Source: Escherichia coli
GTDB taxonomy: Bacteria; Pseudomonadota; Gammaproteobacteria; Enterobacterales; Enterobacteriaceae
Strand: one strand, 5' to 3'
Assembly: GCF_030013595.1 (NCBI RefSeq)
Contig: NZ_CP122768.1
DNA length: 64,000 nt
The position numbers were made by a program, and so were the translations under genes. Numbering within the stretch: position 1 is the first letter of the stretch; each line of letters starts with the position of its first letter. Below, one piece after another: positions 62,501-64,000 of this stretch. Below the pieces are notes generated by a model that saw nothing but the letters and a program-made list of their open reading frames with translations, searched no databases and was not told where the DNA came from.

Positions 62501-64000
62501 ATGCATCGGTCAGTGGCGCGACAGGAAGCCTGTCGTTAATGACGCCACGGGATAATGTTACGCCAGTTAAACTTGAAGGGGTGGTCCGGATTACCGATAG
62601 CGCGACATTAACTATCGGAAATGGCGTCGATACGACGCTTGCCGACCTGACGGCTGCCAGTCGGGGCAGTGTCTGGCTTAACAGCAATAATTCCTGTGCA
62701 GGCACCAGCAACTGCGAATATAGAGTAAACAGTTTACTCCTCAACGACGGTGATGTTTATTTATCAGCACAAACAGCAGCGCCTGCCACAACTAACGGTA
62801 TCTACAATACGCTGACCACCAGTGAACTTTCCGGCAGCGGTAATTTCTACCTGCATACCAACGTTGCAGGCTCCCGGGGCGATCAACTGGTCGTCAACAA
62901 CAACGCCACTGGCAATTTTAAAATCTTTGTTCAGGATACCGGCGTCAGCCCTCAGTCTGACGACGCGATGACGCTGGTGAAAACAGGGGGAGGGGATGCT
63001 TCGTTTACGCTGGGTAATACCAGCGGTTTCGTTGATCTTGGGACCTATGAGTATGTCCTGAAAAGCGACGGCAACAGCAACTGGAACCTGACCAATGATG
63101 TCAAACCCAACCCGGACCCCAACCCAAATCCGAAACCGGATCCAAAACCAGACCCAAAACCGGATCCGAAACCAGACCCGACTCCCGATCCAACGCCGAC
63201 ACCCGTCCCGGAGAAACGCATCACGCCTTCTACGGCAGCCGTACTCAATATGGCAGCAACATTACCGTTGGTCTTTGATGCTGAGCTAAACAGTATTCGC
63301 GAGCGGTTGAACATAATGAAAGCGAGTCCACACAACAATAATGTCTGGGGGACGACGTATAACACCCGTAATAATGTCACCACCGATGCGGGTGCCGGGT
63401 TTGAGCAGACGCTGACCGGAATGACGGTGGGGATCGATAGCCGTAATGATATTCCTGAGGGGATTGCGACGCTGGGCGCTTTTATGGGTTATTCCCATTC
63501 ACATATTGGTTTTGATCGTGGAGGACATGGCAGTGTGGGCAGTTATTCTCTGGGGGGCTATGCCAGCTGGGAACATGAAAGTGGTTTCTATCTGGACGGT
63601 ATCGTGAAGCTGAACCGCTTTGAAAGTAACGTAGCCGGTAAAATGAGCAGCGGTGGAGCCGCCAACGGCAGTTATCGCAGCAACGGGCTGGGCGGTCACA
63701 TTGAAACCGGGATGCGATTTACCGATGGTAACTGGAACCTGACGCCGTATGCATCGTTAACGGGGTTCACCGCTGATAACCCCGAATATCATTTATCCAA
63801 TGGCATGGAATCGAAATCAGTCGATACCCGCAGTATATATCGTGAACTGGGCGCAACGCTGAGTTACAACATGCGTCTGGGGAACGGTATGGAAATTGAG
63901 CCGTGGCTGAAGGCGGCTGTGCGCAAAGAATTTGTCGATGATAACCGGGTGAAGGTGAATAATGACGGTAATTTCGTCAATGATTTGTCGGGCAGACGTG
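59558..64000 (+). pseudogene. ypjA: AIDA-I-type autotransporter adhesin (YpjA/EhaD-like); frame broken at G6 tract 59995-60000; 3' end beyond window
   Basis: Signal peptide MNRTSPYYFRRSVLSLLISALIYAQPGMAA; frame A stops at 60076; the adjacent frame from 59974 is open to the window end and encodes repeated GG-x-Q-x-V passenger repeats, a PNPDPNPNPKPDPKPDP linker and the start of the beta-barrel domain. Confidence 0.85.

Follow-up and report, generated by a model that had tools for sequence, protein, structure and literature searches.

A length-polymorphic Pro-X dipeptide linker ahead of the beta-barrel of the Escherichia coli autotransporter YpjA/EhaD

In a 64,000-nucleotide stretch of E. coli DNA (the window) we found that the adhesin gene ypjA/ehaD encodes an unbroken block of Pro-X dipeptides just before its beta-barrel. 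Probably the block is a proline-rich inter-domain linker in YpjA/EhaD, a type Va autotransporter, and serves as a spacer. Among E. coli strains the ypjA linker is length-polymorphic, yet it is not hypervariable. A (PN)n linker encoded by a paralogue at the ycgV locus is hypervariable.

The linker and the gene that carries it

The features of the gene and of the linker region are:

59558-64000, + strand: ypjA/ehaD, an AIDA-type autotransporter adhesin gene; a pseudogene here, running past the window end
59995-60000, + strand: poly-G tract of six Gs; the in-frame state is G7, giving a 1-bp deletion
62725-63093, + strand: pertactin-like C-terminal passenger (junction/autochaperone) domain, PF03212, ORF residues 918-1040
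63106-63213, + strand: Pro-X linker, from translation, Tandem Repeats Finder, self-identity and an AlphaFold model
63130-63177, + strand: core DNA repeat, two 24-bp units, ccgaaaccggat-ccaaaaccagac and ccaaaaccggat-ccgaaaccagac, coding for (PKPD)x4
63226-63318, + strand: predicted alpha-helix plugging the barrel pore, AlphaFold model residues 193-223, directly before strand 1
63343-64000, + strand: autotransporter beta-barrel domain, PF03797, cut by the window end

The window gene is 99.8% identical to annotated ypjA, and comparison with the full-length relative L001 (ypjA at 1609-6182, with ypjCB upstream) indicates that it would end near 64131. The window is 98.0-98.9% identical to ST2747 and 675SK2; in 675SK2, ssrA lies downstream of ypjA and ypjCB upstream. 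The product matched the Pfam families AIDA x8 (PF16168, 1.5e-138), Pertactin (PF03212, 3.3e-44) and Autotransporter (PF03797, 9.6e-43), the last with a score of 147 bits against a cutoff of 26. Judged from its sequence, the gene is by descent a type Va autotransporter of the AIDA-I/SAAT-like group (YpjA/EhaD) whose reading frame is no longer intact.

Translation of frame 1 across the linker reads V K PNPDPNPNPKPDPKPDPKPDPKPDPTPDPTPTPVPE KR. The block at 63106-63213 on the + strand comprises 18 Pro-X dipeptides in an unbroken row, PNPD PNPN (PKPD)x4 PTPD PTPT PVPE. The peptide quoted in the first-pass annotation of this DNA is exact; the block does lie in the interval given there, 63100-63200, and runs slightly beyond it. 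Proline accounts for 18/36 residues in the linker versus 0.8% elsewhere in the ORF, and the X residues are polar or charged.

The DNA that encodes the linker is itself repetitive. Its base self-identity is 0.56 at a lag of 6, 0.67 at a lag of 12 and 0.69 at a lag of 24. The mean for the window is about 0.27, and 0/5,307 other 108-bp windows match the linker values, so that its periodicity is far beyond chance. Tandem Repeats Finder reported an array with a period of 24 at 63105-63193 (3.8 copies, 77% matches) and one with a period of 12 at 63115-63181 (5.6 copies, 74% matches). The 12-mer ccaaaaccggat lies at 63154-63165 and ccgaaaccagac at 63166-63177. The array had been described as near-perfect 12-bp units; both quoted 12-mers are present, whereas neighboring PKPD 12-mers match at only 9-10/12 bases and alternate ones at 11/12 (units 75-92% identical). 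The two 24-mers of the core match at 22/24 bases, making 24 bp a better period than 12. The core units differ from one another at synonymous third positions only, and no word longer than 11 nt is repeated exactly in the linker DNA.

Both the order of the Pfam domains and the AlphaFold placement bear out the earlier statement that the linker stands just before the beta-barrel of the adhesin. The junction domain stops four codons short of the linker. The C-terminal regions of pertactin, IgA1 protease and Hap align with this domain, and residues 421-534 of pertactin (1DAB) align until three residues before the linker. In an AlphaFold model made from the full-length relative L001, beta-strands continue to residue 148, and the linker (residues 153-188) has no secondary structure, with pLDDT <50 at 156-186. 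It is placed between the end of the beta-helix and the pore helix. Alignment with the BrkA beta-domain (3QQ2) starts at AELNSIRERL, and Foldseek returned this domain with a target TM of 0.89-0.91, together with EspP, Hbp, AIDA-I and NalP. About 305 residues separate the end of the linker from the C-terminus. Because it sits between the junction domain and the helix that runs through the barrel, which has 12 strands in the model, the linker is predicted to emerge at the outer mouth of the barrel. A Pfam match to trypanosome procyclin (PF05887, Trypan_PARP) scored 28.7 bits where the cutoff is 100 and was rejected, the likeness to Glu-Pro repeats being compositional.

The window copy of ypjA has no single reading frame for signal peptide, passenger and barrel. 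It is shifted out of frame after approximately codon 148 and reaches a stop at 60074-60076, so the gene is split into a frame 2 segment (59558-60076) and a frame 1 segment from 59974 onward. The region of the G tract has 241 bases in the window versus 242 in relatives. The first-pass annotation does not mention this frameshift. With the gene frameshifted upstream, the linker is probably not made within a full-length adhesin in this strain. An exact G6 tract occurs in 16 genomes from several backgrounds, G7 in 497 and G8 in 2. Among O145 strains, RM9872 has G7 and RM9873-C1 has G6, and the two are likely near-identical, judged from record size and tract position only. ST2747 ypjA is frameshifted at a site other than that of the window. 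The gene is a pseudogene in the window and in several other lineages, which suggests weak selection on all of it in many strains.

Length variation in ypjA and at the ycgV locus

We surveyed linker length in 5,426 complete E. coli genomes. The ypjA linker is 36, 38, 40, 42 or 46 aa long, in steps of 6/12/24 bp:

36-aa allele: the window, ST2747, PapRG, M3, 027_SK3
38-aa allele: K-12
40-aa allele: O157, O145, OkiPb, F8111
42-aa allele: NRZ104446
46-aa allele: VG48B2, with a 24-bp duplication

As first proposed, repeat number differs between orthologous alleles (36-46 aa) rather than being identical in all of them. The further proposal that the array is hypervariable between strains fails for ypjA. 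Of 2,502 full-length matches 2,202 carry the 36-, 38- or 40-aa allele, and large lineages are fixed for each of the three. Genomes at least 99% identical to them over about 400 bp number 645 for the 36-aa allele, 1,283 for the 38-aa allele and 274 for the 40-aa allele, and identity at this level implies the same linker length. Length differences among close isolates, as expected of a variable-number tandem repeat (VNTR), were not seen in these 645, 1,283 and 274 genomes. Linkers of 42 and 46 aa are rare (about 1 in 60). Among the matches listed, all K-12 derivatives have one length and so do all O157:H7 strains.

The gains and losses among ypjA alleles are of 6, 12 or 24 bp and lie inside or beside the core block at 63130-63177. 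Units of 6, 12 and 24 bp may slip during replication or recombine unequally to give such changes. The long identical tandem run of a hypermutable SSR or VNTR is absent from the ypjA linker, where no exact repeat exceeds the 11-nt word. Length evolution in ypjA is probably slow on account of its synonymously scrambled codons and short exact repeats, and that the DNA units fall short of near-perfect is probably why the array is stable. All linker indels seen are multiples of 6 bp, and we saw no on/off switching by unit number. Since the units are multiples of three bases, slippage alters length and never switches the gene on or off.

E. coli also contains a paralogue of ypjA at the ycgV locus, placed by synteny between ymgJ and minE and labelled 'ypjA' by PGAP. 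The complete E. coli genomes contain roughly 415 genes at this locus, against roughly 2,500 ypjA genes. Over the C-terminal 2.3 kb the paralogue and ypjA are 93-96% identical, and the linker tail PDPTPDPTPTPVPE-KR and both flanking domains are common to them; the paralogue has a passenger about 1.2 kb shorter and a (PN)n linker encoded by nearly pure 6-bp units. By sequence, linkers of 54, 56, 58, 60, 76, 86 and 88 aa occur, and record spans imply approximately 12 length classes among 60 records. Three arrays that are otherwise alike have 8, 9 or 10 CCGAAC units, and identical hexamers occur in runs of 8-11. Long identical CCGAAC/CCAAAC runs of this kind would turn the same linker into a true VNTR. 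We found nothing relevant in the literature on ypjA or ycgV as a VNTR or tandem repeat. The (PN)n linkers of ET201 and EC556 (76 and 88 aa) were considered as extreme ypjA alleles and rejected, their synteny being ymgJ (or IS1)-minE. This synteny and the many genomes that carry both genes identify them as paralogues, leaving a range of 36-46 aa for ypjA.

The variability at the two loci bears on whether the linker is an exposed immunodominant epitope in which host immunity selects for changes in unit number, a proposal made for the repeat regions of pertactin. The linker occupies the position of pertactin R2, which is variable in repeat number (PMC8931430), its length and X residues differ by lineage, and the paralogue is highly variable. 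We nevertheless consider antigenic variation quite unlikely. The ypjA alleles are old and lineage-fixed, with most matches falling in the three main alleles, and ypjA is often a pseudogene. The panel of PMC8931430 had no R1/R2 antibodies. Moreover, the paralogues have identical flanks and very different variability, which argues that variability follows the purity of the DNA repeat and not exposure.

Role of the linker

The most likely function of the linker is that of an extended hydrophilic spacer, as for the Pro-rich domain of TibA and region 2 of pertactin. This reading draws on its position, its composition, the low-confidence stretch of the AlphaFold model and analogy. The ypjA linker has the features of Pro-rich inter-domain linkers: position, high Pro content in short repeats, a predicted non-globular character and repeat-number polymorphism. 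It would form a polyproline-II-type stalk, unable to fold, that keeps the beta-helical passenger clear of the outer-membrane/LPS surface. A stalk of 36 aa would measure at most about 11 nm, taking 0.31 nm per residue. If linker length set how far the passenger projects, as first proposed, the ypjA alleles would differ by at most 10 aa (about 3 nm). Set against a passenger of about 1,000 residues this is small, which makes it doubtful that the polymorphism has a functional effect. A comparable design is found in TonB, where a (Glu-Pro)n/(Lys-Pro)n rod of alternating Pro/charged dipeptides acts as an extended rigid spacer across a cell-envelope compartment. This rod is periplasmic rather than extracellular, is not homologous to the YpjA linker and belongs to a different system.

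Deletion of the TibA Pro-rich domain reportedly affected adhesion, in work by Cote and Mourez from 2011. TibA and YpjA belong to one autotransporter group (PMC9289746). Residues 627-677 of TibA form a 'proline-rich domain' that separates the junction region from the membrane domain, and the two proteins share an architecture of beta-helical passenger, junction region, Pro-rich domain (about 50 aa in TibA) and membrane-embedded domain (PMC3835316). Unlike that of YpjA, the Pro-rich domain of TibA has another sequence and is not a strict PK/PD dipeptide array. Pertactin has variable proline-rich repeats, R1 and R2; R2 could not be resolved in the crystal, and a function as a PPII stalk has been put forward (PMC8931430). 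R2 resembles the YpjA linker in its equivalent position, where crystal structure 1DAB ends, in its loose structure and in a unit number that varies by allele on a slow timescale (PMC8931430). It differs in having a PQP tripeptide unit instead of Pro-X dipeptides, and pertactin is cleaved from its barrel and has been studied for variation as vaccine-driven antigenic change. The proline-rich linker of Agrobacterium Aat, proposed to be unfolded and to extend reach (bioRxiv 10.1101/2022.02.15.480547), likewise joins a barrel/helix scaffold to a beta-solenoid passenger; its sequence and organism are unrelated to those of YpjA, and no tandem DNA repeat is described for it. The biofilm, adhesion and self-association activity ascribed to the YpjA/EhaD group comes from literature statements (PMC9289746, PMC12547504), and we found no experiments on the YpjA linker in the literature.

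More distantly related proteins of Citrobacter, Salmonella, Klebsiella, Leminorella, Erwinia and E. albertii contain unrelated Pro-rich segments of 13-49 aa, which end 298-326 residues from the C-terminus, as the linker of ypjA does. YejO-type homologues are without any Pro-rich segment, so members of the family can be secreted and can function with no such linker. These observations bear on a possible, if unlikely, role of the linker as a secretion aid, which would be compatible with a spacer role. The unfoldable stretch would be the extended hairpin that first threads the barrel/BAM pore; the junction (autochaperone) domain would then fold outside and pull the passenger out, leaving linker length only loosely constrained. 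The linker follows the junction domain and directly precedes the pore helix; it is predicted to be unstructured, and the extracellular junction region is said to help secretion and folding (PMC3835316). Many close members of the YejO type lack such a segment, however, well-studied autotransporters secrete without one, and lengths of 36-88 aa are all tolerated.

The same comparison is relevant to the idea that the linker is neutral low-complexity filler that merely connects two domains, its repeats and polymorphism being by-products of slippage. Neither sequence nor charge is conserved, the dipeptides being PK/PD in ypjA, PN in the paralogue and PE/PT/PV elsewhere; a linker is absent from some homologues, and ypjA is frequently inactivated. 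By contrast, in all in-frame ypjA alleles every other residue is Pro, without exception, from the first P as far as PE-KR, while the X residue is often changed (N, D, K, T, I, G, E, V). The recurrence of unrelated Pro-rich segments at the same position in distant homologues also argues that a property is maintained, and we regard neutral filler as unlikely. As a spacer, the linker would be constrained in its Pro-X pattern only and not in exact sequence or charge. The unbroken register could result in part from the mutational mechanism (6-bp units) rather than from selection.

A more speculative reading, which we consider very unlikely, is that the two paralogous adhesins of E. coli have simple-sequence tuning knobs, with stalk length selected to match the thickness of the O-antigen or capsule and the G7 tract near the 5' end of ypjA as an on/off switch by slippage. 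In this scheme linkers of 36-88 aa (about 11-27 nm fully extended) may give a stalk that changes fast at ycgV and is frozen by codon scrambling in ypjA.

Overlapping reading frames and practical meaning

Two further ORFs overlap the linker:

63045-63383, - strand: antisense ORF, 112 aa, containing GSGFGSGFG; a mirror artefact, not a gene
63095-63289, + strand: off-frame ORF, 64 aa, NRIQNQTQNRIRNQT; an artefact of the same Pro-X repeat, with no Pfam family

The minus-strand ORF is present as first described and, as was thought then, mirrors the repeat; its product has compositional Pfam matches only (KRTAP, TrAA12). It is almost certainly not a real glycine-rich protein overlapping ypjA. No stop interrupts the antisense frame for 147-171 codons in 19/19 alleles and paralogues examined, and synonymous/non-synonymous counts are alike in the two frames (52/22 sense, 49/25 antisense). 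The wobble positions of both frames coincide, so that the open frame and these counts are expected and uninformative. The sense frame carries three curated domain matches over the whole antisense span, whereas the antisense product resembles compositional families only. Nine minus-strand ORFs of 61-202 aa lie inside ypjA, and the length of the antisense Gly-X stretch shifts with every linker allele.

For annotation, neither the antisense Gly-rich ORF nor the off-frame ORF should be called a gene, and the window ypjA should be flagged as a frameshifted pseudogene. The ypjA linker can serve in typing as a stable length marker that is informative of lineage and has three main alleles, and the (PN)n array at the ycgV locus behaves as a high-resolution VNTR. 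Short-read assembly is likely to have trouble with this array, whose gene automatic annotation mislabels 'ypjA'.

The ypjA linker is of a known, ordinary kind with modest length differences between strains. It leaves the current understanding of autotransporters unchanged, and its importance is mostly practical. The 93-96% identical paralogue pair is a natural experiment in which a linker is stable with scrambled codons and unstable with identical ones. The natural variants of 36-88 aa indicate that the barrel tolerates a wide range of linkers, which is relevant to autotransporter surface display.

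A proline-dipeptide linker in YpjA

A 401-bp query spanning the linker matched its gene in 2,524 of the 5,426 complete E. coli genomes, where the annotation is consistently ypjA ('adhesin-like autotransporter YpjA/EhaD'). Of the 2,940 matching places in E. coli genomes, one lies on a plasmid and not on a chromosome. The gene is preceded by ypjCB; relatives' annotation places ypjCB (DUF5507 and DUF5508, 484 aa), a recombinase gene fragment and a 39-aa hypothetical ORF at 57168-58622 and 58980-59500. In 675SK2, ssrA (tmRNA) is directly downstream of ypjA, and ypjA therefore borders the ssrA integration hotspot. 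The window as a whole is 98% identical to ST2747, with overlapping alignments at 22947-23541 across a tandem tRNA-Arg/tRNA-Ser cluster and a gap of ~1.8 kb at 27006-28838, where ST2747 has a truncated emrB.

Features of ypjA in the window
59558 (+): ypjA start, opening frame 2
59995-60000 (+): G-tract near the 5' end, G6
60074-60076 (+): stop codon of frame 2
63106-63213 (+): Pro-X dipeptide linker, frame 1
63045-63383 (-): antisense ORF

In frame 1, the plus strand encodes ...NWNLTNDV K PNPD PNPN PKPD PKPD PKPD PKPD PTPD PTPT PVPE KR ITPSTAAVLN..., an exact match to the linker peptide of the first-pass annotation. The Pro-X block reaches slightly past the span of 63100-63200 that it had assigned. 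Proline makes up 18 of the 36 linker residues versus 0.8% of the remaining ORF. Base self-identity within the linker was 0.56, 0.67 and 0.69 at lags of 6, 12 and 24, with a window mean of ~0.27, and 0 of 5,307 other 108-bp windows attained the linker's value at any of these lags. The periodicity is not due to chance. Tandem Repeats Finder reported periods of 24 (3.8 copies, 77% matches) and 12 (5.6 copies, 74% matches). The repeats had been described as 'near-perfect' 12-bp units, a description that did not survive inspection: the four PKPD 12-mers agree with one another at 9-11 of 12 bases, the actual DNA unit is a 24-mer present in two copies identical at 22 of 24 bases, and exactly repeated words are at most 11 nt long. 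All differences between units are synonymous third-position changes.

Pfam identifies eight AIDA repeats in the ORF, along with a Pertactin domain at residues 918-1040, whose end is four codons short of the linker, and an Autotransporter beta-domain that starts at residue 1124. In a sequence search of solved structures, residues 421-534 of 539 of pertactin (1DAB) aligned until three residues before the linker, and the alignment with the BrkA beta-domain (3QQ2) began at AELNSIRERL, 23 residues past it. We modelled the C-terminal 493 residues of the full-length relative L001 with AlphaFold, using a 26-sequence alignment (mean pLDDT 83.5). The model has beta-strands until residue 148, then a helix (193-223) followed by twelve strands; residues 156-186, inside the linker (153-188), have pLDDT <50 and no secondary structure. 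Foldseek matched the model to the translocators of BrkA (target TM 0.9), EspP, Hbp, AIDA-I and NalP, and its N-terminal part to pertactin. Domain matches, the 3QQ2 alignment and the model thus agree with the earlier placement of the linker ahead of the beta-barrel. The pore helix of solved autotransporter translocators (NalP, EspP, BrkA) enters from the extracellular side, and for this reason the linker emerges at the outer mouth of the barrel.

Interruption of ypjA and the antisense frame

Frame 2, in which ypjA starts, runs into its stop codon and the remaining gene is in frame 1. The switch occurs at the G6 tract, where G7 would restore ...SRIEGG-TANGTIIDGG.... Because of this upstream frameshift, the strain probably does not produce the linker within a full-length adhesin. 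Slippage in the linker array itself cannot switch the gene on or off, since every unit is a multiple of three bases. Among 768 genomes with this type of flank, the tract was exactly G7 in 497, G6 in 16 and G8 in 2. Genomes with G6 belong to several backgrounds, among them 675SK2, three O145 '-C1' strains and APEC37. O145 strain RM9872 has G7 and RM9873-C1 has G6; the two are probably near-identical, as judged only by near-equal record size and tract position. The variation may reflect an on/off slippage switch, repeated pseudogenisation or long-read homopolymer assembly error.

Other lesions were found elsewhere in the gene. In ST2747 ypjA is frameshifted at another site (about 4629-4659 of L001), and five other relatives' loci (L004, L006, L012, L018, L028) also list ypjA inactivations. 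The gene is frameshifted in OkiPb and APEC37, has a frameshift and an internal stop in 675SK2, and lacks its N-terminus in VG48B2 and its C-terminus in O145 RM11626. In F765 (L005 1-778) the IS3-family element IS1203 abuts a truncated ypjA; the alignment begins at ~63173 of the window, inside the fourth PKPD unit, and therefore the breakpoint lies in the linker. Independent inactivation in so many strains suggests weak selection on the gene.

The antisense ORF is present in the window, and its frame was free of stops in 19 of 19 alleles examined, over 147-171 codons. Synonymous and non-synonymous substitutions numbered 52 and 22 in the sense frame and 49 and 25 in the antisense frame. The wobble positions of both frames coincide, which keeps the antisense frame open in all alleles and makes both its conservation and the substitution counts non-discriminating. 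The whole span is covered by curated domain matches in the sense frame, Pfam matches of the antisense product are all compositional, eight further antisense ORFs of 61-202 aa lie inside ypjA, and the antisense Gly-X run mirrors every linker allele. These observations bear out the earlier verdict that the ORF is an artefact. The ORF is a good example of why an overlapping antisense frame should not be taken as coding just because it is conserved.

A putative stalk and its relatives

The linker probably acts as an extended, hydrophilic, polyproline-II-like (PPII-like) stalk from the junction domain to the pore helix. It has a strict Pro-X pattern with polar X and is predicted to be unstructured, and lengths of 36-88 aa are tolerated across ypjA and its paralogue at the ycgV locus. 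PPII geometry gives 0.31 nm per residue. A linker of 36 aa would span at most ~11 nm and gain ~0.6 nm per dipeptide; ypjA alleles would differ by up to ~3 nm, with ~27 nm expected for the longest linker of the paralogue. Alternatively, the segment between junction domain and pore helix could help start passenger translocation, or could be neutral filler.

The linker has parallels elsewhere. The C-terminal 493 residues, searched against a large protein collection, matched autotransporters of E. albertii, Citrobacter, Salmonella, Klebsiella aerogenes, Leminorella and Erwinia. The homologues' Pro-rich segments are 13-49 aa long, unrelated in sequence, and end 298-326 residues from the C-terminus (~305 in YpjA); YejO-type relatives in the same search had no Pro-rich segment. 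The property is thus recurrent at this position but not universal. The architecture resembles that of TibA, in which a 'proline-rich domain' (residues 627-677) lies between the junction region and the membrane domain (PMC3835316), and that of pertactin with its proline-rich repeats. In pertactin, the repeat numbers of R1 and R2 differ among alleles, changing slowly over time; the crystal does not resolve R2, for which a role as a PPII stalk has been suggested (PMC8931430). Linker variation in YpjA could likewise be immune-driven, as discussed for pertactin. Agrobacterium Aat also has a proline-rich linker, proposed to extend reach (bioRxiv 10.1101/2022.02.15.480547). YpjA itself is already known as an autotransporter associated with biofilms and lacks a solved structure (PMC9289746, PMC12547504); its linker is an ordinary, already known type of feature in a known gene. 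Our literature search found no paper on ypjA or ycgV linker polymorphism.

Linker length at the ypjA and ycgV loci

We fetched ypjA alleles from named strains and read their linkers directly.

Linker alleles at the ypjA locus (length; strains; composition)
36 aa; window, ST2747, PapRG; PNPD PNPN (PKPD)x4 PTPD PTPT PVPE
36 aa; M3; window type with substitutions
36 aa; 027_SK3; K-12 type minus one PK
38 aa; K-12, ESY001, EC20-72C, APEC37; K-12 type, PKPD x3, then PN and another PKPD
40 aa; O157, O145, A34, EcU14-2; additional PNPN
40 aa; OkiPb; PKPD x5
40 aa; F8111; mosaic
42 aa; NRZ104446
46 aa; VG48B2; 24-bp duplication

In the alleles examined, lengths always differed by multiples of 6 bp and no linker proline was replaced, while X positions varied. 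At least 99% identity over 401 bp was found in 645 genomes for the window allele (36 aa), 1,283 for the K-12 allele (38 aa) and 274 for the O157 allele (40 aa), together 2,202 of 2,502 full-length matches. Each group is uniform in linker length because one 6-bp indel would give 98.5% identity. In three samples, each of 60 evenly spaced rows, the linkers were 36 aa (56), 38 aa (89), 40 aa (28), 42 aa (1) and 46 aa (1) long; the 5 rows left over comprised 2 records with the paralogue only and 3 from the IS-truncated strain F765. Repeat number does differ between orthologues (36-46 aa), as the first-pass annotation anticipated, but its term 'hypervariable' does not fit three length-uniform alleles with this coverage. 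The ypjA array is polymorphic and lineage-fixed, not hypervariable.

A second place matched in ~415 genomes, at the ycgV locus, flanked by minE on one side and by ymgJ or an insertion sequence on the other (L020 7001-7464, L021 7001-7518, L022-L026 and L015 among the fetched loci). Identity of this paralogue to the window ypjA is 93.5-95.9% in the C-terminal 2.3 kb and 83-88% at the N-terminus. Its linker ends in the same tail, PDPTPDPTPTPVPE-KR, and is otherwise (PN)n, encoded by the hexamers CCAAAC, CCGAAC and CCAAAT. PGAP labels the gene 'ypjA: adhesin-like autotransporter YpjA/EhaD' (L020 4865-8245; L021 4925-8299), so genomes with both genes have two 'ypjA' entries, and such duplicates can confuse presence/absence and allele studies.

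Paralogue linkers read directly were 54, 56, 58, 60, 76, 86 and 88 aa long, and the spans of the 60 best records imply some twelve length classes. MRSN346647, RIVM_C037166 and RIVM_C037791 carry CCGAAC x8, x9 and x10, respectively, in otherwise identical arrays, a difference that reads as stepwise slippage. The paralogue linker is truly hypervariable in length. Its pure hexamer runs, 48-66 bp long, vary freely, whereas the synonymously scrambled PK/PD codons of ypjA, with exact repeats of at most 11 nt, do not. This contrast between two near-identical genes is the best evidence here on what governs variability, and the paralogue (PN)n array is a potential VNTR marker.
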